Numbered from the stretch's first letter, positions 18,252-32,000 are shown. The stretch: DNA of 32,000 nt from Gemmata obscuriglobus (GCF_008065095.1 NZ_CP042911.1:1320001-1352000), one strand, 5' to 3'. Translations and numbers: made by a program. Notes: generated by a model not told the origin, from the sequence alone.

Positions 18252-18341
18252 TAGTCATACACAGTTCACCTGCACCGCCATGATACAGTGAGCGACACAA
18301 CTATGGCCGATGGCGGTGTCAGGTGCAGCGCCGGGTTCGGC
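18252..18341 (-). repeat. attC-like repeat 1 (array-terminal, outer R box lost)
   Basis: CACCTGCACCGCC ... GGCGGTGtCAGGTGcAGCGCCGGGTTCGGC is intact. The left R box is TAGTCAT instead of GCCGAAC. Loop type b (..GTGAGCGACACAAC..GATGG). Confidence 0.6.
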
Positions 18342-18687
18342 TCGCTCACCTCCGCGGTTCCGGGCGATACGCTTCGCACCGCGCATCCGCGGAGCCCGGG
18401 CCACCGGTGCGGCTCTGCGGAGCACCACCGACCCCACGCGCCGTGTCCCGGCACATCGGAGACCACCCACCACCGACACCCGCGGCGGCGAGCCGCGCCG
18501 ACCACCGACGGGCGCCACGCGGAGCACCACCGACCCGCAATCACCGTGTCCCCGCCCGCAACCGGCCACGCCCAACCGCCACTCGCGGCGACGAGCCGCG
18601 CGGGCCATCGGCGGGGACCACACGACCGTCTGACCCGACGCGGACCACACCGTCAGCGCCGCACGCGCCCTCATGCGGCTTGGGGTG
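18342..18687. repeat. Low-complexity ORF-less cassette, copy A
   Basis: 346 bp, C/A-rich and T-poor on the + strand. GGAGCACCACCGACC recurs at 18419 and 18521 (102-nt period). Homologous to copies B-F. Confidence 0.7.
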
Positions 18688-18778
18688 GCCGAACATAAAG
18701 CTCACCTGCACCGCCATCATCGGATGAGCGATGCGTTCCAGATCAGCGGGCGGTGTCAGGTGCAGCGCCGGGTTCGGC
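18688..18778 (-). repeat. attC-like repeat 2
   Basis: 91 nt: GCCGAACATAAAGCTCACCTGCACCGCC-[loop a]-GGCGGTGTCAGGTGCAGCGCCGGGTTCGGC. Confidence 0.8.
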
Positions 18779-18783
18779 CGATG

Positions 18784-19274
18784 CTACTCCCGCCCCAACC
18801 CGATTACGAGGTGACACCATTCCTGGATCTCAGGCTCATTGGGTGACCGTCGGAAGATGGCATAATACCGGCCCCCGTCCGAGCCTTCTACCAGGTAGCA
18901 CACACCATCTACCCCGTAGTCCGAAACCAGCACGGGCTGTGACCACAGCGATAGATGGCCAGCGCCCGCTCGACCTCGGCAGACTCTACGGCGGTCAATC
19001 CACGCTCCTCGAACTCCTGCGGCTGGTCTATGGCCGCGTCCTGAGGCAAGAACCCTCGCCTGCGGGTCACCCGCCACCCGCTCGCGGCGACTTCCAACCG
19101 GATGCTGCACCGGCGGCCCCAGGTCGGCTCGGCGTAGAGCCGGTATGCCCGCACCCCATCGCCACGGGGGAGCGGCAACTCGCCCATCGCCCGCAGCATG
19201 GTGGCAAGCCCGTGTGACACCTTCTCGGGGTTGCACAGGTCGGGCGGCCACGGCAATCCCGAGAAGTACTCCAT
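18784..19274 (-). pseudogene. Cassette ORF, orphan, interrupted by a 1-nt frameshift
   Basis: ATG 19274 (AGAGG upstream) reads MEYFSGLPWPPDL...ERALAIYRCGHSP and stops at 18909. The protein-like continuation PVLVSDYGVDGVCYLVEGSDGGRYYAIFRRSPNEPEIQEW... is in another frame and runs to TAG 18784. The shift lies in the C run near 18925-18935. Confidence 0.6.
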
Positions 19275-19289
19275 CTGTGTACCTCTGGT

Positions 19290-19380
19290 GCCGAACAATA
19301 AGCTCACCTGCACTGCCAGGATCGAGTGAGCAACACAACGCAGATCAGATGGCGGTGTCAGGTGCAGCGCCGGGTTCAGC
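19290..19380 (-). repeat. attC-like repeat 3
   Basis: 91 nt, loop type b. The right R box is GTTCAGC (1 mismatch) and the L box is CACCTGCACTGCC. Confidence 0.75.
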
Positions 19381-19424
19381 ATTTTGGGCCGGCCGGGTAA
19401 CTTGCTAAGCCAGGACACACCGCC

Positions 19425-19823
19425 TCATTCGAGTGGCCTCAAGACCAACGGGGGGAACCGCCCTGGCTCGAAACGCTCGGCCTGTCCGACGATTCGCATG
19501 TGGTCCTCGTGTTCGCTGATCTGATCGACCGTTGCGATCACCCACTCCCAGTGGCGCACCTCGGGAGACGGGGAGCACTTCGACAATGCGCCCAACCAGA
19601 ACCGAACGCTCATTGAGCCGAGATTCTCCAATTCTGACCTAAGGAACTCCGGCAAGTTCGGTGATTCAGCCTGGTCTTCACCCCAATCGAAGACATCAGC
19701 CCACAATGATCGGGGCACAACGACCTCATACCCCGTCGGTTGAAAGGGGCGCGTCTTCAGTTTAACCCACGCGGCCTTGAAGGGAACAGCGGTGCCACCG
19801 ATGGTGAAGGACGGTGTTTGCAT
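19425..19823 (-). CDS. Cassette ORF, hypothetical (132 aa)
   Basis: ATG 19823 is 5 nt after GGAGG and 14 nt after repeat 4. It has its own TGA 44 nt before repeat 3. Lower GC than the surroundings. Confidence 0.65.
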   Translation of the reverse strand: MQTPSFTIGGTAVPFKAAWVKLKTRPFQPTGYEVVVPRSLWADVFDWGEDQAESPNLPEFLRSELENLGSMSVRFWLGALSKCSPSPEVRHWEWVIATVDQISEHEDHMRIVGQAERFEPGRFPPLVLRPLE

Positions 19824-19836
19824 CGCACCTCCGGCC

Positions 19837-19926
19837 GCCGAACAGAAAGCTCACCTGCACCGCCAGGATGGAGTGAGCGACACAACGGCGGCTGATGGCG
19901 GTGTCAGGTGCAGCGCCGGGTTCGGC
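19837..19926 (-). repeat. attC-like repeat 4
   Basis: 90 nt, loop type b. Confidence 0.8.
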
Positions 19927-20286
19927 TCGCTCGCCTCCGCGGTTCCGGGCGACACGCCGAGCTTGGCGCATCCGCGGAACCCGCGGCACCGGTGCGGCCG
20001 AGCGGAGCCCCACCGACTCGAATCGCCGTGTCGCGGCCCACCGGTGGCCACCCATCACCGCACCTCGCGGCGACGAGCCGCGCCCGCCCTGACGCGCGCC
20101 ACGCGGAGCACCACCGACCCGAACCGCCGTGTCCCCACCCGCACCCCGGCCACGCCCAACCACACCTCGCGGCGACGAGCCGCGCCCGCCCCGACCGGCA
20201 CCACGCGGAGCCACCACCGACGCGTGGGCGTCACCTTCGCGGACCACACGCCCACCACCGCACGCGCGATCCAGAACGCGAAGGTG
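19927..20286. repeat. Low-complexity ORF-less cassette, copy B
   Basis: 360 bp. GCGGAGC.. unit starts at 20002, 20103 and 20205 (101/102-nt period). Confidence 0.7.
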
Positions 20287-20377
20287 GCCGAACATAAAGC
20301 TCACCTGCACCGCCATCACACGATGAGCGGTGCGTCACAAGTCAGCGGGCGGTGTCAGGTGCAGCGCCGGGTTCGGC
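20287..20377 (-). repeat. attC-like repeat 5
   Basis: 91 nt, loop type a. Confidence 0.8.
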
Positions 20378-20733
20378 TCGATGCCCTCGGCGGTTCGGGG
20401 TCGCACGCCGAGCGCCGCGCATCCGCAGAGCCCGCGGCACCGACGCGGCTGGGCGGAGCACCACCGACCCGACGCGCCGTGTCCCGGCACACCGGAGGCC
20501 GCCCACCACCGCACCTCGCGGCGATGAGCCGCGCCGACCACCCACGGGCCACACGCGGAGCACCACCGACCCGCACCGCCGTGTCCCGACACATCGGAGG
20601 CCACGCCCAACCGCAAGCTCGCGGCGATGAGTCGCGCCAGACCCGACCGGCACCACGCGAAGCCCGACGCGCGCGGTTCACCACCGCGGACCACACGCAC
20701 ACCGCCGCACGCGCGCTCCTGCACGCGATGGTT
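20378..20733. repeat. Low-complexity ORF-less cassette, copy C
   Basis: 356 bp. Unit starts at 20453, 20555 and 20657 (102-nt period). About 25 T in 356 nt by hand count. Confidence 0.7.
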
Positions 20734-20824
20734 GCCGAACATAAAGCTCACCTGCACCGCCATCATACGATGAGCGGTGCGTTCCAAGTCAGCGGGCGGT
20801 GTCAGGTGCAGCGCCGGGTTCGGC
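20734..20824 (-). repeat. attC-like repeat 6
   Basis: 91 nt, loop type a. Confidence 0.8.
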
Positions 20825-20831
20825 GCTGCGT

Positions 20832-21316
20832 TTACTGCCCATCCGGCTGCCTGTTGCGCATGTGCGCGAACAATTTGGGGTATGGGAGGTCCACACGGTT
20901 CCAATCCGCGTAGCAGGCGGTGAGCCCGCAGGCCACGCACCGGCACCCGATATACACCCAGCGCACGTCCTCGCTGCCTTCGTACAGTGAAGCCCCGACC
21001 GTGATCTCGTAGTGCGTTGGCCCGCGCTCGGTACAAGGGCACCCGCAGCACTCGGTGTCGGCCCCAGGGTCACCCTCATAGTAGCCGTCGATGTTACGGT
21101 CGTGGGACAGGTAGTGGGCGCCGCACGCCTTGCAGAACCACGCGCCTCGCCATACTCCTCGTCGATCTGCAGCGAGAACACCCGGCCACTGCAGTCGCAC
21201 ACCGCGTCGGCAAAGACTGTGAGCGGGTCGGCCTTGCCGCAGGTGCGGGTCAGCACCTCACGGATGTCCGCGGCGGTGTCGCCGTACCAGAACTCGCCCC
21301 GCTCCCGGATCGCCAC
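20832..21316 (-). pseudogene. Cassette ORF, Cys-rich (zinc-ribbon-like) protein interrupted by a 1-nt frameshift
   Basis: GTG 21316 (AGGAG 9 nt upstream) reads AIRERGEFWYGDTAADIREVLTRTCGKADPLTVFADAVCDCSGRVFSLQIDEEYGEARG. The sensible continuation AWFCKACGAHYLSHD...CCGCPC...CRCVACG...RQPDGQ* is in another frame (switch near 21140-21150). Confidence 0.6.
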
Positions 21317-21333
21317 GCCATGCGTCTCCTGCT

Positions 21334-21424
21334 GCCGAACATAAAGCTCACCTGCACCGCCATCACCCGATGAGCGATGCGTCACAACTCCGCGGGCGGT
21401 GTCAGGTGCAGCGCCGGGTTCGGC
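21334..21424 (-). repeat. attC-like repeat 7
   Basis: 91 nt, loop type a. Confidence 0.8.
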
Positions 21425-21470
21425 TTCTGCGACCCCCGCGCCGTGCATTTGCGGGGCGGGGCCAGCCGGC

Positions 21471-21725
21471 CTACAAGGATGGACGCGGCGGGTCGGGCCA
21501 GTTGGCCTCAGACTCGCACTCACGCTGGTACTCCCGCCACGACCGCAACCCTTGGGCCCGCCGCTTGGCGTTGCCCTTGCGCCGCCGCCGCTCCTCGCAC
21601 CGCTTGGTGAACTCGTCGTGCCAGCGGTACTCGTACATCACGTTCGCCGACCGGACGTACTTGCGGAACCTCCGCAGGGCCGACGTGAGCGACTCGCCCT
21701 CGCAGACCTCCACTCGGACACCCAT
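21471..21725 (-). CDS. Cassette ORF: ribosomal protein bS21-like paralogue (84 aa)
   Basis: MGVRVEVCEGESLTSALRRFRKYVRSANVMYEYRWHDEFTKRCEERRRRKGNAKRRA lines up with bS21 (MPxIxV.E.ES.E.ALRRFKR...E.R.RE.YEKP.E.RKR...A.KR). Confidence 0.7.
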   Translation of the reverse strand: MGVRVEVCEGESLTSALRRFRKYVRSANVMYEYRWHDEFTKRCEERRRRKGNAKRRAQGLRSWREYQRECESEANWPDPPRPSL

Positions 21726-21777
21726 CGCTATGCGGCTTGTACGGCTGCCGCGACGCCGGTTGAAAGAGCTTTCTGGG

Positions 21778-21868
21778 GCCGAACAAATAGCTCACCTGCA
21801 CCGCCATCACCGGATGAGCATTGCGTCCCGAATCAGATGGCGGTGTCAGGTGCAGCGCCGGGTTCGGC
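21778..21868 (-). repeat. attC-like repeat 8
   Basis: 91 nt, loop type a. Confidence 0.8.
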
Positions 21869-22165
21869 ATCTGTAGCGGCTGCGGTGAAGCGACCGCCCT
21901 GGAACCCGAGCCGCAACGGCGCCCAGCCCGCGGTTGATGGCCAGCCCAGCGACGCCGCGAACCGCACCGCTTCGGCCACGAACCGGGGCGTGACCACGTG
22001 AGGCTCGGCCCCCGGCCCGTCCGGCTCTAGCCAGTCCCGCCAGCCCCAATCGACGTAGAACTGGGGGCCGCTGCGGTCGCCCGGGATGACGACCAACACG
22101 TCGTTGAACCGCCAGCGGAACGGCCGGCCGTCAACCACGATCCGCCGTAGTGGTCCCCACCCCAT
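21833..22165 (-). CDS. Cassette ORF, hypothetical (110 aa), stop codon supplied by the attC-like repeat
   Basis: ATG 22165. MGWGPLRRIVVDGRPFRWRFNDVLVV...GWPSTAGWAPLRL. It reads in frame into repeat 8 (...TDAEPGAAPDTAI*). The IS3 element is inserted 13 nt upstream of the ATG. Confidence 0.6.
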   Translation of the reverse strand: MGWGPLRRIVVDGRPFRWRFNDVLVVIPGDRSGPQFYVDWGWRDWLEPDGPGAEPHVVTPRFVAEAVRFAASLGWPSTAGWAPLRLGFQGGRFTAAATDAEPGAAPDTAI

Positions 22166-22243
22166 CGTGCGCCCCGGTTATAGTGGACCCCGAAAACTGG
22201 ACCGCCGGTTAAGCTATACCGGAGGCCCAGGAAAGGGGAACCC

Positions 22244-22531
22244 ATGGCGGGCAAGCGGAAGAGTCACTCGGCGGCGTTCAAGGCCCAGGTCGCGCTGGCG
22301 GCCCTCAAGGGCGACAAGACCATCAACGAACTGGCGAGTCAGCACGGCGTCCACCCGACCCTGATTCATGGGTGGAAGAAGCAGTTGCTCACCGGGGCCG
22401 AGGCCGTGTTCGCCTCGGGGGCGAAGGGCACCGGCCCCCCGGAAGACAAGACGACCGAGTTGTACGAGCAGATCGGCCGCCTCAAGGTGGAACTCGACTG
22501 GGTGAAAAAAAAATCGGCCGCCCTCGGCTGA
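22244..22531 (+). CDS. IS3-family transposase OrfA (HTH)
   Basis: MAGKRKSHSAAFKAQVALAALKGDKTINELASQHGVHPTLIHGWKKQLL. Coiled-coil tail. An A9 run (22505-22513) lies near the 3' end. Confidence 0.85.
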   Translation: MAGKRKSHSAAFKAQVALAALKGDKTINELASQHGVHPTLIHGWKKQLLTGAEAVFASGAKGTGPPEDKTTELYEQIGRLKVELDWVKKKSAALG

Positions 22532-22601
22532 GGCCAAGCGTGCCCGGATCGAGGCCGAGCACCCGGAGCTGAGCGTCCGGCGCCAGTGCGAGCTGATCGG
22601 A

Positions 22602-23372
22602 TTGAACCGCTCGACGGTGTACTACGAGCCGACCCCGGAGAGCGCGGAGAACCTGACGCTGATGCGGTTGATCGACGAGCAGTACACGACGTGCCCGTTC
22701 TACGGGAGCCGGCGCCTGGCCGCGTGGCTGGGCACCCAGGGCCACGAGGTGAACCGCAAGCGGGTGCAGCGGCTGTTGCGGATCATGGGGTTGGAGGCCC
22801 TGTACCCCAAGCCCAAGCTGTCGGTCGGGTCCGGGCACAAGGTGTACCCGTACCTGTTGCGGGGCGTGGCCATCGACCGGGTCCATCAGGTGTGGAGCAC
22901 GGACATCACGTACATCCCGATGCCCACCGGGTTCATGTACCTGGCCGCAACGATGGACTGGTTCAGCCGGTACGTGGTGGCCTGGCGACTGTCCAACACG
23001 TTGGACGGGTCATTCTGCCAGGACATGCTGGAGGAGGCCTTGGGCCGGGGCAAGCCGGAGGTGTTCAACACGGACCAGGGAGTCCAGTTCACGGCCGCCG
23101 CGTGGGTCGGGCGATTGGAGCGGGCCGGGGTCGCGGTGAGCATGGACGGGCGGGGCCGGTGCCTGGACAACGTGTTCGTGGAGCGCCTGTGGCGGAGCGT
23201 CAAGTACGAGGACGTGTACCTCAAGGGTTACGAGTCGGTGCCGGCCCTGGAGAGTGGGCTCCGGGCGTACTTCGGGTTCTACAACACCGAGCGGTTACAC
23301 CAGTCCCTGGACTACCGCACCCCGGCTCAGGTGTATGGCGTCGGAGCCACGAAGGCCCCGACGAAACAGTAG
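22602..23372 (+). CDS. IS3-family transposase OrfB (rve/DDE integrase core)
   Basis: The frame is open from 22506. HPELSVRRQCELIGLNRSTVYYEP...VWSTDITYIPM...FNTDQGVQFTA...MDGRGRCLDNVFVERLWRSVKYE (D, D, E blocks). It is in the +1 frame relative to orfA. Confidence 0.85.
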   Translation: MNRSTVYYEPTPESAENLTLMRLIDEQYTTCPFYGSRRLAAWLGTQGHEVNRKRVQRLLRIMGLEALYPKPKLSVGSGHKVYPYLLRGVAIDRVHQVWSTDITYIPMPTGFMYLAATMDWFSRYVVAWRLSNTLDGSFCQDMLEEALGRGKPEVFNTDQGVQFTAAAWVGRLERAGVAVSMDGRGRCLDNVFVERLWRSVKYEDVYLKGYESVPALESGLRAYFGFYNTERLHQSLDYRTPAQVYGVGATKAPTKQ

Positions 23373-23425
23373 CGAAGGATAGCAACTTTTTGGTCTAGAC
23401 AATGGGGTCCACTGTAGGCCCTCCC

Positions 23426-23515
23426 GCCGAACGAACAGCTCACCTGCCTGCCCCGTCGGAGGACGCGCCGGGCGCCACGTTAGCGGGGCAGGTCAGGTGC
23501 AGCGCCGGGTTCGGC
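23426..23515 (-). repeat. attC-like repeat 9 (divergent L box)
   Basis: 90 nt. GCCGAACGAACAGCTCACCTGCCTGCCCC ... GGGGCAGGtCAGGTGCAGCGCCGGGTTCGGC. The L-box change is compensated on both arms. Confidence 0.75.
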
Positions 23516-23588: not shown

Positions 23589-23969
23589 TCATTGTTGGGC
23601 GGACTCAAAGGCTGCGATGACGTGATCGATGTCTCTGGGGATCGGGCGAGGGAGCTGCCCGTGTGGCGCTGGGTCGATGCAAACGTGCTGGGTTCCATTT
23701 TCTCTGGCCCTTCGCAGGTAGTAAGTGGCTTCGTGCCGGGTGTACGGTCTGAATCCCGCAAGACCTGGCACGGTGCCGATGTGGTCTTGGGCGAAACGTT
23801 CCGCGAGATCGCTGTCACTGAAGAGTGGCAGCATACGCCCGGCACGTGATCCGTCGGCCACGAGGTCTACGGTGAAAAGTCTTGGCGGATCACCGTGGAC
23901 CATGAACCACGGCAGCCCGATGAGAACGAAAACATTCGGCGATTTGGCCGACTCTTCACCCATTTGCAT
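23589..23969 (-). CDS. Cassette ORF, hypothetical (126 aa; weak SseB-like flavour)
   Basis: ATG 23969 or 23963 after GGAAGG. ...RMLPLFSDSDLAERFAQDHIG... It has its own TGA. GC is clearly lower than in neighbouring cassettes. Confidence 0.6.
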   Translation of the reverse strand: MQMGEESAKSPNVFVLIGLPWFMVHGDPPRLFTVDLVADGSRAGRMLPLFSDSDLAERFAQDHIGTVPGLAGFRPYTRHEATYYLRRARENGTQHVCIDPAPHGQLPRPIPRDIDHVIAAFESAQQ

Positions 23970-23989: not shown

Positions 23990-24079
23990 GCCGAACGGAC
24001 AGCTCACCTGCACCGCCATGCCCCCTTTAGGCTCGCACCTGCTGACGATGGCGGTGTCAGGTGCAGCGCCGGGTTCGGC
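23990..24079 (-). repeat. attC-like repeat 10 (unique loop)
   Basis: 90 nt. Standard R and L boxes with loop ATGCCCCCTTTAGGCTCGCACCTGCTGACGATGG. Confidence 0.8.
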
Positions 24080-24088: not shown

Positions 24089-24790
24089 TCAGGGCATGCT
24101 TGATGACTGCGGAGCGGCTTGGGTATTCGGTGTTTGTTTGTGCTTGTCAATCTCTGCGAAGTAGCGACCGCCGAAGAACGCCACGACCGAGGCGATGCCC
24201 GCGAGAAGGACTGTGGTAACTGCCGTGATGACCGCGAGACGCTTCTTGTAGCTGTAATCCTGAGCCGTTCGCTTCGATTCTTGCGACTCTTGCCACGCGC
24301 GGCGATCCTTCTCTTGGGCTTCTTGCCACTGGCGGTTCTTCTCATCCTTCTCGTCCTGCTTGCGGTCGCGTTCATTCTGCCACTGTCGCGCCTTCTCGGC
24401 TTCGGCGGCTTGGTGAGCGCGGTTTTTGTCGGCTTCGGTCGCGTTCTTCTCTTGCACTTCTCGCGCGACCTCTCTTGCGGTAATCATTTCGGCATGCTCC
24501 TTTGGACTGTGCCCAGATTCAAATGCACAGTAATCGGAACATGCTCGCTCTGAGTTGATGGCGGCTACATACGATTTCTGCTTGTCCCGCGTATCCTCGA
24601 ACTGGCGTTTGTAATCCTCTTCGGGTCCGGCGTGGCCGTGGAAACAGAACGGCGAATGTCGAGCACCAGGAAAAGAGGTTGACTTGCCGGTGCGGCGCCA
24701 CTCCAAGTCAACGAGCTTCAACTCGGGGTCGTGATCCACTTTCCCGGAGAGGAACCCACAGTTAGCGCATCGGACCTTGGGCGATTCCAT
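24089..24790 (-). CDS. Cassette ORF: zinc-ribbon / charged coiled-coil / C-terminal TM protein (233 aa)
   Basis: ATG 24790 after AGAGGGG. CANCGF...FCFHGH. EAEKARQWQNERDRKQDEKDEKNRQWQEAQEKDRRAWQESQE. TM helix LAVITAVTTVLLAGIASVVAFFGG. The most AT-rich cassette in the array. Confidence 0.7.
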   Translation of the reverse strand: MESPKVRCANCGFLSGKVDHDPELKLVDLEWRRTGKSTSFPGARHSPFCFHGHAGPEEDYKRQFEDTRDKQKSYVAAINSERACSDYCAFESGHSPKEHAEMITAREVAREVQEKNATEADKNRAHQAAEAEKARQWQNERDRKQDEKDEKNRQWQEAQEKDRRAWQESQESKRTAQDYSYKKRLAVITAVTTVLLAGIASVVAFFGGRYFAEIDKHKQTPNTQAAPQSSSMP

Positions 24791-24810: not shown

Positions 24811-24901
24811 GCCGAACATAAAGCTCACCTGCACCGCCATCATCGGATCAGCGATGCGTTCCGAATCAGCCGGCGGTGTCAGGTGCAGCGCCGGGTTCGG
24901 C
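24811..24901 (-). repeat. attC-like repeat 11
   Basis: 91 nt, loop type a. Confidence 0.8.
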
Positions 24902-24906: not shown

Positions 24907-25311
24907 TTATTGGGCGTCGCGGGCCTCCTGCCGCAGCTCCGCCAGATACACCTCGAAGCTGCCGTACCGCTCCTCGACCTCGTGGGCCTCGTGTTGGTAG
25001 AACCCGACACCCCACATGGCACCACCGCGGTCCACGAACCAGTAGTCCCCAGCCCCGTTGGTGCCGACGACGAGGTAGCTCGCTGGCCACGGCTCCTCGT
25101 CCTCACCAACGGTCATCCAGGCCGCCCGCTGCCGCGCCGCCAAATTCTCTCGGATGATGGCATCCGCGTCGGTCCACAGCACAGCGCGTTGCGGGAGGGT
25201 CGCCTTGATCCGGCGAACTTCGTCAGCGTGGCGGCGGAGGAAGTCGCGGTACTCGCCGGGCAGCGGATGGCCGAGCGCCGACTCGATCCGGGCAACCTCG
25301 GCTTCGCCCAT
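24907..25311 (-). CDS. Cassette ORF: SMI1/KNR4 (SUKH-1) family immunity-type protein (134 aa)
   Basis: ATG 25311 is 8 nt after GGAGGG. VARIESALGHPLPGEYRDFLRRHA ... YLVVGTNGAGDYWFVD ... SFEVYLAEL. Confidence 0.75.
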   Translation of the reverse strand: MGEAEVARIESALGHPLPGEYRDFLRRHADEVRRIKATLPQRAVLWTDADAIIRENLAARQRAAWMTVGEDEEPWPASYLVVGTNGAGDYWFVDRGGAMWGVGFYQHEAHEVEERYGSFEVYLAELRQEARDAQ

Positions 25312-25328: not shown

Positions 25329-25419
25329 GCCGAACGAACAGCTCACCTGCACCGCCATCACCGGATGAGCGGTGCGTCACAAGTCAGCGGGCGGTGTCAG
25401 GTGCAGCGCCGGGTTCGGC
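25329..25419 (-). repeat. attC-like repeat 12
   Basis: 91 nt, loop type a. Confidence 0.8.
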
Positions 25420-25753
25420 TCGCTCACATCCGCGCCGCGCATCCGCGGATGCCCGCCCACCGGTGCGACCGGGCGGAGCACCACCGAACCACGGCGCCGT
25501 GTCCCGACACATCGGGGGCCACCCACCACCGCCACACGCGGCGATGAGCCGCGCCCGCGACCGATCGGTCTCAGCGGAGCACCACCGACCCGCACCACCG
25601 TGTCCCCATCCGCACCCGGCCACAACCACCGCAAGCTCGCGGCGACGAGCCGCGCCAGCCCCAACCGGCACCACGCGAAGCCCGACGCGCGCGGTTCACC
25701 ACCGCGGACCACACGCACACCGCCGCACGCGCGCCCTCATGCACGCGATGGTT
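25420..25753. repeat. Low-complexity ORF-less cassette, copy D
   Basis: 334 bp. Unit starts at 25473, 25574 and 25675 (101-nt period, not a multiple of 3). Confidence 0.7.
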
Positions 25754-25844
25754 GCCGAACATAAAGCTCACCTGCACCGCCATCACCCGATGAGCGGTGC
25801 GTCACAAACGAGCGGGCGGTGTCAGGTGCAGCGCCAGGTTCGGC
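25754..25844 (-). repeat. attC-like repeat 13
   Basis: 91 nt, loop type a. Confidence 0.8.
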
Positions 25845-25845
25845 A

Positions 25846-26091
25846 CTACAGCGTCTCGATCCAGTTGGCGCGGCCTGTGGTGGTGCTCACGCACACGGGC
25901 CAAGTGCCCGGCGTGTCGAACGCGATGGTGCCGTCGCCCAGGTCGAGCGGTTCGGGCACCAGATGCACCACCCAGGTCTGCCCGCCGTCCCGCGACAGCA
26001 CGTCGCCGACCCGCTCGACCTTCTGGTACGGACTCGGCGGGTCGTCCGAGGCCAACCTCAGTGCCATCGCAACGGCTTCGTCACGGCCCAT
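25846..26091 (-). CDS. Cassette ORF, hypothetical (81 aa)
   Basis: ATG 26091 after AGAGGG. TAG lies 1 nt before repeat 13. Confidence 0.55.
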   Translation of the reverse strand: MGRDEAVAMALRLASDDPPSPYQKVERVGDVLSRDGGQTWVVHLVPEPLDLGDGTIAFDTPGTWPVCVSTTTGRANWIETL

Positions 26092-26109: not shown

Positions 26110-26263
26110 GCCGAACTTCGGAGCTCAGGCGCGCGCGGCTGGATAAAGCTGCGCTCCCGAGCCGCGACCGCGCGTCGCCTGCAGCGTCTGGTTCGGCGGC
26201 GCATCACACTTCGCAGGCTTTGCGAGGATGTGACGCACCCCGCGCCTGAGCTACGAGGTTCGG
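26110..26263 (-). repeat. attC-like repeat 14, sequence-unrelated 'twin-arm' variant (154 nt)
   Basis: The left arm GCCGAAC-TTCGG-AGCTCAGGCGCGCGCGG pairs either with the inner arm CCGCGaCCGCGCGtCGCCTGcAGC-GTCTG-GTTCGGC (ends 26197, bulged) or perfectly with the outer arm CGCGCCTGAGCT-ACGAG-GTTCGGC (ends 26263). Confidence 0.65.
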
Positions 26264-26407
26264 CCTGGTCGCGCCGAGCCCCGAGTTCGCGGGACCACCA
26301 CCCCGGGCCGGGTTCCGGGGCGGCGCCGTCGCGCTTGGGAGGGGGGCGACGGGTCCCCACACTGTGCCGCACCGGAACCCGCGGTTGCAGAGAACCGGCG
26401 CGACCAG
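26264..26407 (-). other. ORF-less mini-cassette (144 bp) with terminal 12-bp inverted repeat
   Basis: CTGGTCGCGCCG (26264-26275) pairs with CGGCGCGACCAG (26397-26408). No credible ORF or SD. Confidence 0.5.
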
Positions 26408-26498
26408 ACCGAACGAACAGCTCACCTGCACCGCCATCACCGGATGAGCGGTGCGTCACAAGTCAGCGGGCGGTGTCAGGTGCAGCGCCGGGTTCGGC
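26408..26498 (-). repeat. attC-like repeat 15
   Basis: 91 nt, loop type a. The left R box is ACCGAAC. Confidence 0.75.
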
Positions 26499-26506
26499 CT
26501 CGCCAC

Positions 26507-26857
26507 CTACACCCGGAAGAGGCGAGCCGCGATGGCCGCAACCGCGCCGACCTGCTCCGTGGGTACGAAGATAGTGAACCGCGTAGTGCGATATCTCCGC
26601 CCGCGGAACTCAGCGAAGTATCGCACCCCAATACGGGCCATCTCTTGGTCGAACAGGTAGATGTTGTGCTCTGCGGTCTCGCGGAACACGCCTGCGTACT
26701 CGACAGCCCCAACCGGCTGGGGCAACTCAGCGACCGACCCGACCATGTGTTGCGCGCGGCGCTGCCACGCGCCCACCGGCCTCTTCTTGCGGGCTCCGCC
26801 GGGGCGGCCGGGCCAACGTCGGGCGCCCTTACCGCGACTTCGTGGCGAACGGCACAT
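26507..26857 (-). CDS. Cassette ORF, hypothetical (116 aa)
   Basis: ATG 26857 after AGAGG. The Arg-rich N-terminus is doubtful. The C-terminal half (VEYAGVFRETAEHNIYLFDQEMARIGVRYFAEF...) looks protein-like. Confidence 0.5.
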   Translation of the reverse strand: MCRSPRSRGKGARRWPGRPGGARKKRPVGAWQRRAQHMVGSVAELPQPVGAVEYAGVFRETAEHNIYLFDQEMARIGVRYFAEFRGRRYRTTRFTIFVPTEQVGAVAAIAARLFRV

Positions 26858-26877
26858 CTGAAGTCTGCGCCTCTGTA

Positions 26878-26990
26878 GCCGAACATACAGCTCACCTGCC
26901 CGGCCGGGATCGCAACCAGCCTACACGAAGGCGCGGTGAGCGACACGAAACAAATCACGTGGCCGGGTCAGGTGCAGCGCCGGGTTCGGC
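26878..26990 (-). repeat. attC-like repeat 16 (113 nt, divergent L box)
   Basis: CACCTGCCCGGCCGGG ... GGCCGGGtCAGGTG. Compensatory change relative to the modal CACCGCC/GGCGGTG. Confidence 0.75.
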
Positions 26991-27383
26991 CGCGGTCTGC
27001 CCGCAAATGGGGCAATACATGCGCCCGCCCCGACCCTCCGAAACGCGCATGTTCACAAGCCATCTGTGGTAACAGCAACCCAAGGCCTTTGCCGCTGTGG
27101 TGTGGGCCGAGCCCCCGACATCGGACGTGTCGCGAATCTCGGACAAGGCCTTCCGGAGCCGCACCAACTCGTCCTCCATCCGGCACAGGTGCTCGATCAG
27201 GTTCACCGTCCAACGGGACTCGTACTCGCCCGGGACGTGCACGTCGAATGTACGGGGATTGGCCGCGGTCGCCACCTCCACCCACGATGACGTGTCGAAG
27301 CAGATGCTCCAACTGCCCTTGGAGTAGTCGGCTTGTTGGCCGCCCTCCGTCCAACCTCGGGCTTTCAGTTCATCGGCGAACAT
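26955..27383 (-). CDS. Cassette ORF, hypothetical (142 aa), stop supplied by the attC-like repeat
   Basis: ATG 27383. ...CCYHRW...MYCPICGQTA then an in-frame AEPGAAPDPAT* tail from repeat 16. Confidence 0.6.
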   Translation of the reverse strand: MFADELKARGWTEGGQQADYSKGSWSICFDTSSWVEVATAANPRTFDVHVPGEYESRWTVNLIEHLCRMEDELVRLRKALSEIRDTSDVGGSAHTTAAKALGCCYHRWLVNMRVSEGRGGRMYCPICGQTAAEPGAAPDPAT

Positions 27384-27422
27384 CGGCTACTAGCGCCCAC
27401 CTGAGGCGCTCTCCGCGGGGTG

Positions 27423-27513
27423 GCCGAACAAATAGCTCACCTGCACCGCCATCACCGGATAAGCGGTGCGTCCCAAGTCAGACGGCGGTGTCAGGTGCAG
27501 CGCCGGGTTCGGC
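27423..27513 (-). repeat. attC-like repeat 17
   Basis: 91 nt, loop type a. Confidence 0.8.
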
Positions 27514-27930
27514 GTCTGTGAGCCACCGCACTGCGAAGTGGTCGTAGTGCAGGGCCGCGAACCGCTCGCGGAGTTGGGCCGCGAGCCACCAGAACTTGGC
27601 CCGGCGGTCGGCGGTCAGACCCGGGTCGGACCACACAGATAGCCGGCGGGAGCACCCGGCGACCACCTCCGGCGGGGCCGGTAGGTCAGGGCCGGCGGCC
27701 AGTTCTGCGCTGTCGGCCAACACCTCCGCTCCCTCCTCCAACCACGCCACCACGGCCCAGGAGGTGAACCGCACCCGGAAACCGGTTGGGCTACGGGCTT
27801 CGGGTGCTAACTCGGCCTGGACCGACCGCCGACCGCACTGTCGGCCATCGAAGTACGCGACAGCCGCAGCCAGAGAGAAGTCACTCGACGCCGGCAAGTG
27901 CGCCAACATCTTCAGACGACCGTTGCTCAT
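27478..27930 (-). CDS. Cassette ORF, hypothetical (150 aa), stop supplied by the attC-like repeat
   Basis: ATG 27930 after AGAGGG. Ends ...AVRWLTD + AEPGAAPDTAV*. Confidence 0.6.
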   Translation of the reverse strand: MSNGRLKMLAHLPASSDFSLAAAVAYFDGRQCGRRSVQAELAPEARSPTGFRVRFTSWAVVAWLEEGAEVLADSAELAAGPDLPAPPEVVAGCSRRLSVWSDPGLTADRRAKFWWLAAQLRERFAALHYDHFAVRWLTDAEPGAAPDTAV

Positions 27931-27945
27931 CCGCGGCCCTCTGGT

Positions 27946-28035
27946 GCCGAACAAATAGCTCACCGGCCGCGCACGCCGCGACACGGTCTACCGAGTGCGT
28001 AGTTTACAGCGGTCCGGTGCAGCGCCGGGTTCGGC
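27946..28035 (-). repeat. attC-like repeat 18 (CACCGGCCGC subtype)
   Basis: 90 nt. AGCTCACCGGCCGC ... GCGGtCCGGTGCAGCGCCGGGTTCGGC. Confidence 0.75.
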
Positions 28036-28041
28036 GGGCCT

Positions 28042-28482
28042 TTACTCGGCAGGCGGCTCCCGCCCGGCCGCGACCTCGTCGATAGTGGCGTTGACCCGCC
28101 ACGCTGCGTCCAAGTCGCAAGCTCGGAGCTGCGGCGGCACATGCCCCCGGCCGCGGATCCGGGCGACGAGCGCGTCGGGCAACCGCAGCCCGTGCCGCTC
28201 GACGTAGTGCGCCAGCGTGTGCGGCCAGAGCCACTCCCCATCCCACCGCCAGGTCGCATTGTCGGTCAGCGACTCGCCGCACAGCGAACATGGGCAGTAG
28301 CTCGGCTGCGTGGACCAGCACACCGGCGTCTGCCGCAGGTACTCCAGCAGTTCCGCTCGGTCCGCCACCTGCCAGGACGCATCGAGGAGACGACCGAGGG
28401 ACGGGAACACATCGTCCTGCGTGGACTCCCAGCAGAAGAAGCCGAACCATCGGTGGGGCCAGTCCCGCCACAGGTCTGCCAC
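28042..28482 (-). CDS. Cassette ORF, hypothetical Cys-containing protein (146 aa)
   Basis: GTG 28482 is 9 nt after AGAGGG. CPCSLCGESL...WDGEWLWPHTLAHYVERHGLRLPDALV. Confidence 0.6.
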   Translation of the reverse strand: MADLWRDWPHRWFGFFCWESTQDDVFPSLGRLLDASWQVADRAELLEYLRQTPVCWSTQPSYCPCSLCGESLTDNATWRWDGEWLWPHTLAHYVERHGLRLPDALVARIRGRGHVPPQLRACDLDAAWRVNATIDEVAAGREPPAE

Positions 28483-28499
28483 CGCCTAAGCCCTCTCTT

Positions 28500-28589
28500 G
28501 CCGAACAATAAGCTCACCGGCCGCGCACGCCGCGACACGGTCACCGAAGTACGCACTTTACAGCGGTCCGGTGCAGCGCCCGGTTCGGC
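28500..28589 (-). repeat. attC-like repeat 19 (CACCGGCCGC subtype)
   Basis: 90 nt, close relative of repeat 18. Confidence 0.75.
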
Positions 28590-28923
28590 TTCTGCGCTGG
28601 CATTTGCGGTTCCGCGGAGCCCGCGCCCGCGTCGCACATCCGCGGAGCCACCACCGATCCGCACCACCGTGCCGCGGCACACCGGGGGCCACCCAACACC
28701 GCACCTCGCGGCGGTGAGCCGCGCCAACCCCGACCGGCACCACGCGGAGCACCACCGACTCGCACCACCGTGTCCCAAGGCACTGCCAGCCACGCCCACC
28801 CGCACCTCGCGGCGGTGAGCCGCGCCCGCACCCACGGGCACCATGCGAAGCCCGACACCCGGGGTTCACTTACGCGGACCACGCGCCCACCACCACCGCA
28901 CGCGCGATCCAGCAGCGTCGGGT
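28590..28923. repeat. Low-complexity ORF-less cassette, copy E
   Basis: 334 bp. Shares the TTCTGCGCTGGCAT.TGCGGTTCCGCGGAGCCCGCGC leader with copy F. Confidence 0.7.
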
Positions 28924-29076
28924 GCCGAACCAGGAGCTGAGCTGCAAGCCGCCCCTCTCAGGACGGTCTCCCCTTGCTCCCGCAGCGGCTTGTCAGCTCC
29001 AGCGGGGGGTTCGGCCGACGGCCGCCTCCTTCCGCCAGAGGATGAGTGAGCGTTGCAGCTCAGCTCCGGGTTCGGC
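28924..29076 (-). repeat. attC-like repeat 20, second sequence-unrelated 'twin-arm' variant (153 nt)
   Basis: The left arm GCCGAAC-CAGGA-GCTGAGCTGCAAGCCGC pairs with the inner arm GCGGCTTGtCAGCTcCAGC-GGGGG-GTTCGGC (ends 29015) or with the outer arm TTGCAGCTCAGCT-CCGG-GTTCGGC (ends 29076, no bulges). Confidence 0.65.
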
Positions 29077-29249
29077 CGCCGCCGGATGAGCTCAGCCCAC
29101 CGGGGACATCGCACGGCGGGAGATCACCATGCGACCTCAGGCCGCTCGGATCGGCGGGCCCTCGCCGGTCGCCTTCACCGAGGTGGAGGTGGCGACAACC
29201 TTACGACCGCCCGCCGATCCGCGGCGCGTGCAACCACCTCACGGCGGCG
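29077..29249 (-). other. ORF-less mini-cassette (173 bp) with nested hairpins
   Basis: CGGATCGGCGGG (29147-29158) pairs with CCCGCCGATCCG (29210-29221), enclosing GTCGCC..GGCGAC. Only ORFs of 13 codons or fewer on the minus strand. Confidence 0.5.
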
Positions 29250-29340
29250 GCCGAACATAAAGCTCACCTGCACCGCCCTCACCGGATGAGCGGTGCGTCC
29301 CGAATCAGCCGGCGGTGTCAGGTGCAGCGCCGGGTTCGGC
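29250..29340 (-). repeat. attC-like repeat 21
   Basis: 91 nt, loop type a. Confidence 0.8.
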
Positions 29341-29748
29341 GTTTGGGGATAACCCGGCGGCCAGGAACGCGGGGAACGAAGGGGCCATCTCGTGGATGCC
29401 GCCAAAGTCGTGATCCTCGACCAGCACTCGCCCGGACGAGAGCTCGATGCCGAACGGGTTGCCGCCGCCATCCCAACCGATGATGAACACTCCTCGCATG
29501 TGCCAGAACTCGTTGTCCGCTCGGAACTGGCGGTGCGAATCGGCCAACTCGGGCAGCCCGTCGATCCACTCGCCGTCACCGCCCACGCGCCCGCCGCACA
29601 CCGTCAGGTACTCGCGGAACGCTGGCGGGATCGTCCCGAACTCGACCTCGAACGCCCGCAGGTCGCCCTCGGCGGCCGGCGGGTGGCGTTCCTCCTCAGG
29701 GCAGGCGTGCCACGCCGCGACAAGGAGTTGCCGCAGTCGCTCGTTCAC
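29305..29748 (-). CDS. Cassette ORF: SMI1/KNR4 (SUKH-1) family immunity-type protein
   Basis: Likely GTG 29748, 7 nt after AGAGGG (the track uses TTG 29754). LRAFEVEFGTIPPAFREYLTVCGG ... FIIGWDGGGNPFGIELSSGRVLVEDHDFG. Ends ...SPN + AEPGAAPDTAG* inside repeat 21. Confidence 0.75.
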   Translation of the reverse strand: MNERLRQLLVAAWHACPEEERHPPAAEGDLRAFEVEFGTIPPAFREYLTVCGGRVGGDGEWIDGLPELADSHRQFRADNEFWHMRGVFIIGWDGGGNPFGIELSSGRVLVEDHDFGGIHEMAPSFPAFLAAGLSPNAEPGAAPDTAG

Positions 29749-29764
29749 ATGCAAGCCCTCTGTG

Positions 29765-29854
29765 GCCGAACATAAAGCTCACCTGCACCGCCATCATCGG
29801 ACAAGCGATCGTTCCAGATCAGCGGGCGGTGTCAGGTGCAGCGCCGGGTTCGGC
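29765..29854 (-). repeat. attC-like repeat 22
   Basis: 90 nt, loop type a variant. Confidence 0.8.
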
Positions 29855-30235
29855 GTCTTCGCTATCCGTCCAAGGAAAGCTGCCGATGAACATGGGGTCG
29901 GCAGCAATGGGGACGTACACCCGCGATGGATCGTATGCGTAGTTGTACTGTGCAACGGCCCAGAATGCGGTGCGGATTCCCCTCGCTTCGGCGGCGCGAA
30001 TTGCCGCGGCGAGAAATGATCGCGAGTAGGATAGTTGCCGTAGTACCTCCACGGCCGGCGCCTCCTCGAACTCTCCAACCGCAACAACGTCTTGGAAGTC
30101 CCGATCGTAGGCTTGCACCCCACATAAGTCGCGGAGAATGTCATCCTCGCTGTCGCGCCGTGGTCGGGTCAAGCCGATCCAAACGGAGACCACGCCATCT
30201 TTGTCGAAGTAGTCGCTCCGCTCCACACACGTCAC
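29819..30235 (-). CDS. Cassette ORF: Imm22-like polymorphic-toxin immunity-type protein
   Basis: GTG 30235 or 30226. GVVSVWIGLTRPRRDSEDDILRDLCGVQAYDRDFQD...LRQLSYSRSF...WAVAQYNYAYDP matches my memory of the Immunity-22 pattern. Ends ...SED + AEPGAAPDTAR* inside repeat 22. Confidence 0.6.
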   Translation of the reverse strand: MTCVERSDYFDKDGVVSVWIGLTRPRRDSEDDILRDLCGVQAYDRDFQDVVAVGEFEEAPAVEVLRQLSYSRSFLAAAIRAAEARGIRTAFWAVAQYNYAYDPSRVYVPIAADPMFIGSFPWTDSEDAEPGAAPDTAR

Positions 30236-30242
30236 TCCGCTC

Positions 30243-30333
30243 GCCGAACGAACAGCTCACCTGCACCGCCATCACCGGATGAGCGGTGCGTCCCGAATCA
30301 GCGGGCGGTGTCAGGTGCAGCGCCGGGTTCGGC
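30243..30333 (-). repeat. attC-like repeat 23
   Basis: 91 nt, loop type a. Confidence 0.8.
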
Positions 30334-30341
30334 GCCTGCGG

Positions 30342-30680
30342 CTAGAAAGGCAGGTCATCCGGTCCAGGCGGGGGCGTGACCTCGGCCGCCGGCTCGGACG
30401 GCCCCGGCCCGAGTACCCGCACCGTCACCTCGTCTCCGGGGGCGAGCGGTGCGTGGGTCCACCGCATCTCCCCAGCCGCGTCGTCATGGGCGAACACGGC
30501 CAGCACCAGCGACTCGCCCCCGTTGTCACCATCGTAGTCAGTGACCGGACGCAGCAGGCGCAATGGGGCGAGCCGGCAGTACTGCACTTGGGCGTTCAGG
30601 CAGCCGTCGCCGGCCTGCCCGGCGAGGCACACCCGCCGACCGTTGACCAGCACCTCGAACCGCACCACCGCCTCCGCCAC
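30342..30680 (-). CDS. Cassette ORF, hypothetical (112 aa)
   Basis: GTG 30680 is 8 nt after AGAGGG. It has its own stop 8 nt before repeat 23. Confidence 0.55.
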   Translation of the reverse strand: MAEAVVRFEVLVNGRRVCLAGQAGDGCLNAQVQYCRLAPLRLLRPVTDYDGDNGGESLVLAVFAHDDAAGEMRWTHAPLAPGDEVTVRVLGPGPSEPAAEVTPPPGPDDLPF

Positions 30681-30697
30681 ACCGGTGCCCTCTGCGT

Positions 30698-30787
30698 GCC
30701 GAACGAACAGCTCACCTGCACCGCCAGGATGAAGTGAGCATCACAACTGCGGCCGATGGCGGTGTCAGGTGCAGCGCCGGGTTCGGC
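30698..30787 (-). repeat. attC-like repeat 24
   Basis: 90 nt, loop type b. Confidence 0.8.
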
Positions 30788-31122
30788 TTCTGCGCTGGCA
30801 TGTGCGGTTCCGCGGAGCCCGCGCTTGCACCGCGCATCCGCGGAGCCACCACCGACCCGCACCACCATGCCGCGGCACACCGGGGGCCACCCACCACGGC
30901 ACCGCGCGGCGATGAGCCGCGCCGCCCACCGACCGGTATCGGCGGAGCACCACCGATTCGACGCGCCGTGTCCCCACGCGCCTCCGCCCACGCCCAACCG
31001 CACCTCGCGGCGATGAGCCGCGCCAGACACGACCGGCACCACGCGGAGCACCACACGCGAGGTTCACCCATGCGGACCACACGCTCAGCGCCGCCGCACG
31101 CGCGCTCCAGAACGCGAGGGTG
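30788..31122. repeat. Low-complexity ORF-less cassette, copy F
   Basis: 335 bp, closest to copy E. Confidence 0.7.
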
Positions 31123-31213
31123 GCCGAACAAATAGCTCACCTGCACCGCCATCATCGGATGAGCGGCGGGGTCCGAATCACATGGCGGTGTCAGGTGCAG
31201 CGCCGGGTTCGGC
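31123..31213 (-). repeat. attC-like repeat 25
   Basis: 91 nt, loop type a variant. Confidence 0.8.
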
Positions 31214-31480
31214 TTCTTGCGGCGCCTCTGCCAGACCGCGCATCTGGTATCGACGAGGCCCCTCGACGGTGACCGCGGCCCCGCCTTCGCAGATGACATG
31301 CGTGCCGTAGGCCGACTCGACAACCGTCAGCGACGGCACCGCGTCCAACCCGACAGCGGTAACGACGCACTCCTCGCCGGGTCGAAGGGCGACGCTGAAG
31401 TCGCTTGGGACGACCTCCACTAACCGGTCGGCCCCGCTGTCAGCGTCGTTGCACACACACAGGCGAACGACGAGGCTCAT
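31178..31480 (-). CDS. Cassette ORF, hypothetical (100 aa), stop supplied by the attC-like repeat
   Basis: ATG 31480 after AGAGGG. MSLVVRLCVCNDADSGADRLVEVV... Ends ...APQE + AEPGAAPDTAM*. Confidence 0.6.
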   Translation of the reverse strand: MSLVVRLCVCNDADSGADRLVEVVPSDFSVALRPGEECVVTAVGLDAVPSLTVVESAYGTHVICEGGAAVTVEGPRRYQMRGLAEAPQEAEPGAAPDTAM

Positions 31481-31498
31481 CCGATGCGTCCCTCTGGT

Positions 31499-31589
31499 GC
31501 CGAACAATGAGCTCACCTGCACCGCCACCTCCAAGGGAGCGGTGCGTCCCACGTCAGATGGCGGTGTCAGGTGCAGCGCCGGGTTCGGC
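31499..31589 (-). repeat. attC-like repeat 26
   Basis: 91 nt, standard boxes, variant loop. Confidence 0.8.
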
Positions 31590-31596
31590 GCCTGGG

Positions 31597-31950
31597 CTAC
31601 TTCCCTGGGGCAACGATGTCGAGTACCCGCTGGACCGGAACCCCGAGTTGCCGCGCCCGGCTGAGGGCGAACGGCACGACGTAGTACGCGGAATCGGAGT
31701 CGAACGGGTCCACGGCCGCCGTCTCGTTGTACAGGGTCTTGAGGCAGATCTCCTCGAAGGCGTACTGCCCCTGCCGCAACCGGTCCGAGGTGCCGAGCCA
31801 GCGGCGTCGCACCTCGTCGAATAGGCGGTGGGCGGCCGGCCACTGCTTGGGGTCGGCCGCGAGCGCCACCACCCGTGCGGCGGACTCGGGATCGGGAGCG
31901 TGCGGCGCGAACAGCCGCAGGAACGCCACGATGTCTTCCGCCATCCCCAC
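31597..31950 (-). CDS. Cassette ORF, hypothetical (~115 aa)
   Basis: GTG 31950 or ATG 31944 after AAGGAGGG. It has its own stop 7 nt before repeat 26. Confidence 0.6.
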   Translation of the reverse strand: MGMAEDIVAFLRLFAPHAPDPESAARVVALAADPKQWPAAHRLFDEVRRRWLGTSDRLRQGQYAFEEICLKTLYNETAAVDPFDSDSAYYVVPFALSRARQLGVPVQRVLDIVAPGK

Positions 31951-31966
31951 CCCGAAGCCCTCCTTA

Positions 31967-32000
31967 GCCGAACGAACAGCTCACCTGCACCGCCATCACC
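31967..32000 (-). repeat. attC-like repeat 27 (cut by window edge)
   Basis: GCCGAACGAACAGCTCACCTGCACCGCCATCACC is the left arm and the beginning of a type-a loop. Confidence 0.7.

Follow-up and report, generated by a model that had tools for sequence, protein, structure and literature searches.

The DNA analysed here, referred to throughout as the window, is a stretch of 32,000 nucleotides from the planctomycete Gemmata obscuriglobus (GCF_008065095.1, NZ_CP042911.1:1320001-1352000). Its right-hand part, positions 18,252-32,000, is occupied by 28 co-oriented attC-type sites, mostly 90-91 nt long and repeating about every 450 bp, which alternate with 18 short minus-strand open reading frames (ORFs) and 8 units that carry no ORF. 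A prior description made from the letters of the window alone (the sequence-only reading) had proposed that this was the gene-cassette array of either a sedentary chromosomal integron or a cluster of attC sites lacking an integron integrase (CALIN). The segment is the distal 13.7 kb, or 35%, of a 39-kb array in the G. obscuriglobus chromosome, and that array is very probably a complete sedentary chromosomal integron and not a CALIN.

A strict pattern search of the window returned 24 left arms and 24 right arms of the repeat on the plus strand and none of either on the minus strand, so that the placement of the repeats in a single orientation by the sequence-only reading was borne out. When the left-arm 14-mer GCCGAACATAAAGC was searched with up to 3 mismatches, 25 matches were found as against 1.5 expected from shuffles; 23 of these fall inside the array, all on the plus strand, and the same attC families were recovered by a repeat finder. 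By length, 24 complete sites comprise 15 of 91 nt, 7 of 90 nt, 1 of 92 nt and 1 of 113 nt. The remaining 4 are a divergent complete site (26110-26197), a terminal site (18252-18341), a half-site (29017-29078) and a site cut by the window end (31967-32000); the earlier count of 27 repeats is within one of ours, depending on what is counted. The sites share a mean pairwise identity of 76%. A covariance model built from them gave ~95-110 bits on the plus strand (108.7 bits for the site at 18688-18778) and ~30-44 bits on the minus strand, with 72 bits for the terminal site and 49.3 bits for the divergent one. The same model found no attC site in window positions 1-18,150, and a search of the whole window at Rfam gathering thresholds returned no family for the repeats. 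Across ~41 kb of non-array flank (excluding a stretch upstream in locus L140 that is itself array), only isolated matches to a loose attC-arm pattern were observed. Scatter in both orientations, as for a repetitive extragenic palindrome (REP) or a miniature inverted-repeat transposable element (MITE), was named by the sequence-only reading as one finding that would count against it; none was seen among the at least 259 copies examined in the genome or in the ~41 kb flank, the copies being clustered in a few arrays in one orientation.

Folded as single-stranded DNA with DNA parameters, the plus strand of every complete site takes the canonical attC shape. Its R stem of 7 bp (GCCGAAC/GTTCGGC) is separated by an unpaired 5x5 spacer from the L stem, in which a bulged C follows the first 3 bp and a bulged T the next 6 bp, with at least 7 bp beyond; a variable loop of about 33 nt closes the hairpin. 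Folding energies lie between -24 and -32 kcal/mol, and representative sites reach z scores of about -4 to -4.7 relative to shuffles. When 25 sites were aligned, paired bases filled 97.7% of pair cells and five L-stem pairs showed changes on both sides, while none of 500 shuffles reached the observed values and slid partners paired at 27-42%. Both bulges always lie on the 3' arm of the plus strand, and the divergent site at 26110-26197, with a wholly different L-stem sequence, retains the pairing and both bulges in place. Since the extrahelical bases lie on this arm, the plus strand corresponds to the recombinogenic bottom strand and the cassettes are read on the minus strand, an assignment already made by the sequence-only reading and supported also by the asymmetry of the covariance model (~100 versus ~40 bits). 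The R''/R' and L''/L' boxes, the spacer, the extrahelical bases confined to one arm and the loop are together the defining features of attC sites (PMC12614218); the consensus and layout proposed earlier accordingly hold, all complete sites giving the same DNA fold. When the Planctomycetes attC covariance model of Ghaly et al. 2021 (PMC8352920) was run as a sequence filter alone (via nhmmer), 16 of 19 matches at E<10 fell on the repeats, all on the minus strand; 14 of the 16 were full length, and 2 covered only the first third of the model. This result is consistent with the assignment suggested by the sites' sequences, but not decisive.

The units between sites measure 210-731 bp, plus a single unit of 1,557 bp that holds an insertion of the IS3 family of insertion sequences (IS), against a previously stated range of 144-730 bp. 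One minus-strand ORF with a coding signature (GC3 0.64-0.92 and GC2 0.44-0.60, the G+C fractions at third and second codon positions) is present in 18 of the 26 intervals, the number claimed before, and these ORFs start 7-52 nt after the R' box where 15-50 nt had been given. The usual ribosome-binding site is of the AGAGG type, with (C)AGAGG(G) located 2-6 nt after GTTCGGC in most cassettes. Clear Pfam matches were obtained for 3 cassette ORFs only, two of the SUKH/SMI1_KNR4 type and one ribosomal protein S21 paralogue, and one further ORF has a weak match to Immunity protein 22 (Imm22). The coding units have the composition of gene cassettes, one ORF without a promoter together with one attC site, all co-oriented.

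The attC sites persist past position 32,000 for 25.3 kb more of array, up to a putative attI and an integrase gene (intI). The start of the array was reached by an upstream walk using cassette proteins, exact matches of which also placed the window on the chromosomal record CP025958.1 (8,998,893 bp; host G+C 68%), where window coordinate w corresponds to position 6,700,356 - w and whose plus strand is the minus strand of the window. On this record the integron extends over about 6,641,959-6,682,104, and its 82 attC sites are spread over the 39.0 kb between genome position 6,643,426 and the window terminus at 18,252; the spacing has a median of 449 bp and a largest gap of 1,647 bp. The assemblies LR593888.1, the ABGO draft and CP025958.1 come from the same strain and are 99.99% identical and colinear, and draft contig ABGO01000017.1 agrees with CP025958.1 as far as window-equivalent 41,950. 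A chromosomal location, 82 attC sites and homogeneity among them (the mean identity given above) characterise a sedentary chromosomal integron, for which a threshold of more than 10-20 cassettes has been discussed (PMC9024848).

An intI gene matching TIGR02249 lies at window-equivalent ~57,429-58,397, 25.4 kb beyond the right end of the window. Locus L148 opens (1-357) within the 3' part of this gene, which was called at 322 aa and carries PF13495 and PF00589. The 118 C-terminal residues encoded there match TIGR02249 profile positions 198-315 of 315 (E = 1.1e-53) and include the IntI-specific stretch (extra segment), together with the catalytic tyrosine and an HxxR motif. Gene and cassettes share one strand; intI is read in the direction of the array and stops at window-equivalent 57,429, being co-directional with the cassettes and not divergent from them. 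The same arrangement was found in five related loci, in which the same attC type adjoins an IntI homologue with the 3' end of intI facing the array in 5 of 5. Two of these five homologues were checked and scored 465.8 and 398.7 bits on TIGR02249 (cut-off 265). Because intI is co-directional in all five, this layout is a property of the lineage and not an accident of assembly. The intI of the window genome was not among the best 120 homologues of a related IntI. Directly 3' of the intI stop, a region of ~160 nt contains two CC(G/T)TGTTATTG(C/T)GC repeats followed by CACACTAAACACTG|GTTCGGC (ACTG|GTTCGGC), which is the exact start of the first cassette. Judged by its sequence, this region would be the expected attI x attC junction and hence a putative attI. 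The expectation that attI and intI lay to the right of 32,000 was borne out by this gene and the putative attI, with attC sites running uninterrupted from there to 18,252.

At least four more same-strand arrays (B-E, the integrase-linked array being A) are present in the genome, bringing the total to at least 259 attC sites and about 150 kb of array. Array B starts at about 2,790,700 and continues beyond 2,841,459 (at least 103 attC sites), array C occupies 2,509,788-2,531,101 (50 attC sites), array D extends from 3,613,223 onward (at least 24 attC sites) and array E is on draft contig ABGO01000243.1. No integrase was found by tblastn or Pfam at the 5' ends of arrays B, C and D, and no intI lies within about 7 kb upstream of the leader of array E. 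Each of arrays B-E opens with a copy of the attI region that begins exactly where the array A intI stop codon lies (copies and leaders at L141 5230-5640, L133 6570-6985, L140 6940-7350 and L129 4480-4672). In arrays B, D and E the attI copy stands behind a shared leader of ~250 nt with TTGAGC-N17-TACACT (TAGACT in D), a promoter-like element that matches at 8 of 12 positions in B and E, planctomycete promoters being poorly defined. The fourth attI-region copy, without the shared leader, is cut by an IS630-like element. Upstream of one leader, L140 1-7300 (ABGO01000243.1) is also an attC array, with 11 attC-arm matches and 8 matches to the unit motif of the ORF-less cassettes described below; this places two arrays in tandem with the leader between them.

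Copies of individual cassettes in several of these arrays provide evidence on cassette movement. The 515-bp cassette with a 147-aa SUKH ORF (29305..29748 in the window) occurs at least 8 times over arrays A, B, C and D with 0-3 mismatches. For all but one copy, 140-187 of 250 flanking positions differ on each side; the exception is one array D copy, whose downstream 250 nt has 6 mismatches to that of the window. Identity among the copies stops at the R' boxes, within a few bases of the predicted crossover points. In addition, arrays A and B have 27 cassette-sized segments in common, at 90-99.6% identity and in a different order. Duplicated cassettes of this kind are what excision and insertion by an integrase would predict, unlike segmental duplication, and near-identical cassettes in unrelated contexts point to recent cassette movement. 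On this computational evidence, the cassettes appear to behave as discrete mobile units. The 84-aa S21 paralogue cassette is present in four protein-identical copies, two in array A and two in array B.

These features suggest how the system would operate. Each cassette ends in an attC site, ahead of which it has either no ORF or a single one that lacks a promoter but is preceded, close behind the R' box, by a ribosome-binding site of its own. The attC bottom strand, which is the plus strand of the window, folds to a hairpin imitating a double-stranded recombination site, and the two bulged bases mark the strand used by the integrase. IntI would recombine two adjacent attC sites at G|TTCGGC and so release the cassette, and the excised circle would reinsert at the attI directly 3' of the intI stop codon. 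The integrase may well be active today. Unless there are promoters inside the array, cassettes as far from attI as those of the window probably form a reserve with little expression.

Several points weigh against reading the locus as a complete and working integron. No sigma-70-type promoter was found in the window array, and the array has no defined cassette promoter (Pc). The E-values given by the Planctomycetes filter are weak, from 0.006 to about 7 and mostly below about 1. The intI gene was read only over its last 118 residues, its length of 322 aa resting on a gene call, and the three assemblies compared represent one strain, so that cassette turnover between strains is not visible. A more sceptical account would hold that an integron integrase made the array, and that it is now inert, its repeats being relics and its cassettes amounting to a frozen gene island. 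The four other arrays without an adjacent intI, the IS elements in and beside arrays, the apparently disrupted ORF in one cassette and the position of the window segment, 25-39 kb from attI, are all compatible with such decay. Against it, intI is called full length with an intact catalytic C-terminus, attC pairing is maintained at 97.7%, with compensatory changes, and the copies of the 515-bp cassette with 0-3 mismatches in unrelated contexts point to recent movement; we therefore regard an inert array as unlikely, although worth keeping in mind.

Two further accounts would separate the repeats from a resident integrase. The window segment could be a CALIN, since neither the window nor the 19 kb to its right contains intI and the other arrays of the same genome are intI-less. 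A CALIN is taken to be a cluster (gaps under 4 kb) that has two or more attC sites and contains no intI, and from the window to attI and intI the array is continuous, with no attC gap above 1.65 kb; barring a misjoin of CP025958.1 in this repeat-rich region, that possibility is accordingly very improbable, and of the two alternatives offered by the sequence-only reading it is the integron that stands. The repeats could also be REP- or MITE-like palindromes, or terminator hairpins, that punctuate an island of small (immunity) genes and have no connection with integron recombination. They are indeed GC-rich palindromes between short co-oriented genes, several of the ORFs are of the SUKH immunity type that often forms gene islands, and they have no Rfam family. 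Yet the genomic copies are confined to a few arrays in one orientation, with isolated loose matches in the flank and no covariance-model site in the left part of the window, and the hairpins are without T tails. Moreover, the array begins at an integron integrase gene and attI junction, the linkage of attC to intI is repeated in five other loci, duplicated units stop exactly at R' boxes, and the asymmetric bulges are retained even where the stem sequence has been replaced. Such an origin has, in our estimation, a negligible probability, and a complete sedentary chromosomal integron is the reading with which we proceed.

Six window intervals of 334-360 bp, with 75-77% G+C and no coding signature, belong to one family of ORF-less cassettes, all on the minus strand (18342..18687, from repeat and coding-signature analysis, 19927..20286, 20378..20733, 25420..25753, 28590..28923 and 30788..31122). 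Head and tail are conserved among the members, and the units of 100-104 nt (~101 nt), of which a cassette has 1-3 in tandem, each carry a CGCGGC-TCRTC-GCCGCG hairpin and the motif TCGGTGGTGCTCCGC. The family accounts for 96 of 255 intervals (38%) across four arrays, always in one orientation, and occurs throughout L123-L133 and L148 too. Traces are present in G. algarum, and the head and tail occur in the Gemmata sp. integron of L019. An Rfam E-value search of 19,900-20,800, which covers two of these cassettes, returned no family. The 101-nt units were considered as structured RNA and set aside, there being no covariation support (term -0.06), and a whole cassette (20378..20733) folds no better than shuffles (z = +0.36). 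Coding repeats were likewise rejected, with no 3-nt periodicity (p = 0.29) and GC1, GC2 and GC3 about equal. By analogy with the gene-less cassettes of Vibrio, in which internal promoter activity has been demonstrated, we hypothesise that the family may have such activity.

The further arrays and this family can be brought into one tentative picture, in which the intI-less arrays are live platforms served in trans by the single IntI and the ORF-less family is an amplified non-coding cassette, functional or selfish. We consider this combination possible, with the balance of probability against it. In support of many platforms, each intI-less array opens with an attI copy, which in three of them stands behind the shared promoter-like leader, and the ORF-less cassette could serve, for example, as an internal promoter or an insulator where arrays outrun one Pc.

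The individual features of the array all lie on the minus strand, with the exception of the IS3-family element. The terminal attC (18252..18341) has its R'' and L boxes and loop intact, the outer R' box and spacer being replaced by unrelated sequence. It is followed by the site at 18688..18778, identified by its fold (z = -4.7) and the score given above. Both fold and covariance model identify the sites at 19290..19380, 19837..19926, 20287..20377, 20734..20824, 21334..21424, 21778..21868, 23990..24079, 24811..24901, 25329..25419, 25754..25844, 26408..26498, 27423..27513, 29250..29340, 29765..29854, 30243..30333, 30698..30787, 31123..31213 and 31499..31589. The same holds for several variants, namely sites with a compensated L stem at 23426..23515 and, in 113 nt with a longer loop, at 26878..26990, and sites with a variant L box at 27946..28035 (with compensatory changes) and 28500..28589. 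The site at 28924..29015, identified by its fold, has a fully compensated L box (GAGCTG/CAGCTC). It is accompanied by the extra half-site at 29017..29078, an R''/L'' arm without bulged bases located 61 nt from this complete site. The 61-nt spacing is the minimum in all four arrays A-D, which indicates that the double-armed site moves along with its cassette.

The cassette ORFs begin on the left with two that have a coding signature and no Pfam match (121 aa, 18909..19274; 132 aa, 19425..19823). They are followed by a coding region apparently spread over two reading frames, which may be a disrupted gene (20832..21316), and by the 84-aa S21 paralogue (21471..21725; PF01165, E = 3.9e-11). A 110-aa ORF (21833..22165) lies in the cassette that also holds the IS3-family insertion (22244..23372, plus strand), whose OrfA (22244-22531; HTH_Tnp_1) and OrfB (22602-23372; rve) are oriented opposite to the cassettes. 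Beyond it are ORFs of 126 aa (23589..23969), 233 aa (24089..24790), 134 aa (24907..25311, SUKH/SMI1_KNR4 immunity-type) and 81 aa (25846..26091), then a short ORF-less cassette of 210 bp (26198..26407) to the right of the divergent attC. The remaining ORFs encode 116 aa (26507..26857), 142 aa (26955..27383, with its end inside the attC), 150 aa (27478..27930), 146 aa (28042..28482), 147 aa (29305..29748, the SUKH/SMI1_KNR4 protein, whose cassette has at least 8 further near-identical copies in arrays B, C and D), 138 aa (29819..30235, the weak Imm22 match), 112 aa (30342..30680), 100 aa (31178..31480) and 117 aa (31597..31950). In the array annotation of CP025958.1, many called genes of 60-400 aa cross attC sites or the GC-rich ORF-less cassettes, and such calls vary between annotations of the same sequence; those across attC sites and ORF-less cassettes are probably spurious.

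At the left end of the array, the absence of the outer R box at 18,252 agrees with the sequence-only reading, and the inverted repeat that it noted just beyond is real (18137..18196, minus strand, downstream of the array end; stem about 20 bp, -38.5 kcal/mol, z = -7.6). The terminator that it inferred there was not confirmed, as the hairpin has no T tail and fails a terminator scan. Over 212 nt that take in the truncated terminal attC, its flank and the hairpin, the window shares 85% identity with the end of the L019 integron, a two-cassette, intI-linked integron in a metagenome-assembled Gemmata sp. Because the same terminus and flank are found at this identity in another Gemmata species, the array end is ancestral and not a recent loss, and by sequence the integron locus appears to be orthologous between the two. 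IS1111-attC elements are known to target attC sites. In the window, an IS110-family transposase gene (Transposase_20, with the DEDD domain partly matched) lies at 16966-17880 on the plus strand, about 370 nt from the array terminus. This element was considered as the cause of the terminal truncation and rejected, given that the truncated terminus and 100 nt of flank are conserved (85%) in another Gemmata species and that the other attC half was not found left of the IS. Further left are two cobalamin riboswitches (RF00174; 96 and 98 bits) at 2683-2887 and 4193-4396 on the plus strand, about 1.5 kb apart, and a CobW-family gene (14564-16174, minus strand) between the riboswitches and the integron end.

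The attC type is also found beyond this genome. With a 20-nt attC arm as the query and each species represented by a single genome, the matches listed included Gemmata sp., G. algarum, Gemmata sp. IIL30, Zavarzinella, Fimbriiglobus, Frigoriglobus and other Planctomycetota, as well as contigs binned to other phyla, and the covariance model identified same-strand arrays in many loci. The modal attC sequence had appeared distinctive to the sequence-only reading, but the attC type is not unique to this genome: it is shared across Gemmataceae and present in contigs binned to other phyla. The latter contigs (L026, L020, L100 and others) are binned to Betaproteobacteria (Alcaligenaceae), Isosphaera and other taxa; some of their copies exceed 100 bits on the Gemmata model, and in one case they adjoin an integron integrase gene. 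Either cassette exchange across phyla or mis-binning would account for them. In a related Gemmata species, IntI shares 72% identity with an IntI of Methylomonas methanica.

Integrons are known mostly from Proteobacteria. A well-studied planctomycete whose complete integron has a very large number of cassettes (82 at the integrase locus, within the genome-wide total given above) offers a useful non-proteobacterial model. Besides this large number, its interest lies in the attI copies at the head of the satellite arrays and in the non-coding family that dominates the cassettes. It raises the questions of whether one integrase serves several attI platforms, what effect an integrase reading into its own array has on expression, and why one non-coding cassette family fills more than a third of cassette positions. 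For annotation, the consequence is that many genes called across attC sites or GC-rich non-coding cassettes should probably be discounted.

A chromosomal integron is a known kind of gene-capture system, here of unusually large size. In one group of integrons, with members that include Treponema denticola and planctomycetes, intI is co-directional with the cassettes. This 'inverted integrase' group is recognised in the literature (PMC3575428), and the likeness to it of the present locus and the five related ones is by intI orientation alone. Genome surveys have already recorded chromosomal integrons among Planctomycetes (PMC2674596, PMC2426708, PMC4889954, PMC8352920); in the literature searched, no paper describing the G. 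obscuriglobus arrays was found. Compared with the Planctomycetes attC class (PMC8352920), the sites described here share an R'' box of 7 nt that ends in AAC, followed by 5 nt of spacer, 3 pairs, an unpaired top-strand G and a stem, with an end of the form GTT-purine-rich-C (minus-strand layout GCCGAAC-CCGGC-GCT-g-CACC). They differ in their weak sequence match, in having G at position 4 where the model prefers U, and in their L-box sequence. CALINs are attC clusters without an integron integrase (Cury et al. 2016, PMC4889954), which arrays B, C and D resemble in having no intI at their 5' ends, and array E in having none within about 7 kb. Unlike CALINs, the intI-less Gemmata arrays start with an attI-region copy, in B, D and E behind the shared leader; an attI copy at the start of a CALIN was not found described in the CALIN literature searched.

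The closest parallels overall are with the superintegrons of Vibrio, such as that of V. cholerae with its V. cholerae repeats (VCR). In both, a chromosomal array of tens to hundreds of cassettes has similar attC sites of a species type, mostly short ORFs without known function, some gene-less cassettes (PMC11014356) and a single intI with attI (putative in Gemmata) at one end. The Gemmata integron differs in that its host is a planctomycete with 68% G+C, its intI reads towards the cassettes and not away from them, and its attC sites are 90-91 nt long with GCCGAAC/GTTCGGC boxes. In addition, the Gemmata genome contains at least four extra arrays without intI but with attI copies, and ~38% of its cassettes are gene-less and of one family, whereas a screen of the V. 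cholerae N16961 superintegron identified 9 gene-less cassettes (PMC11014356).

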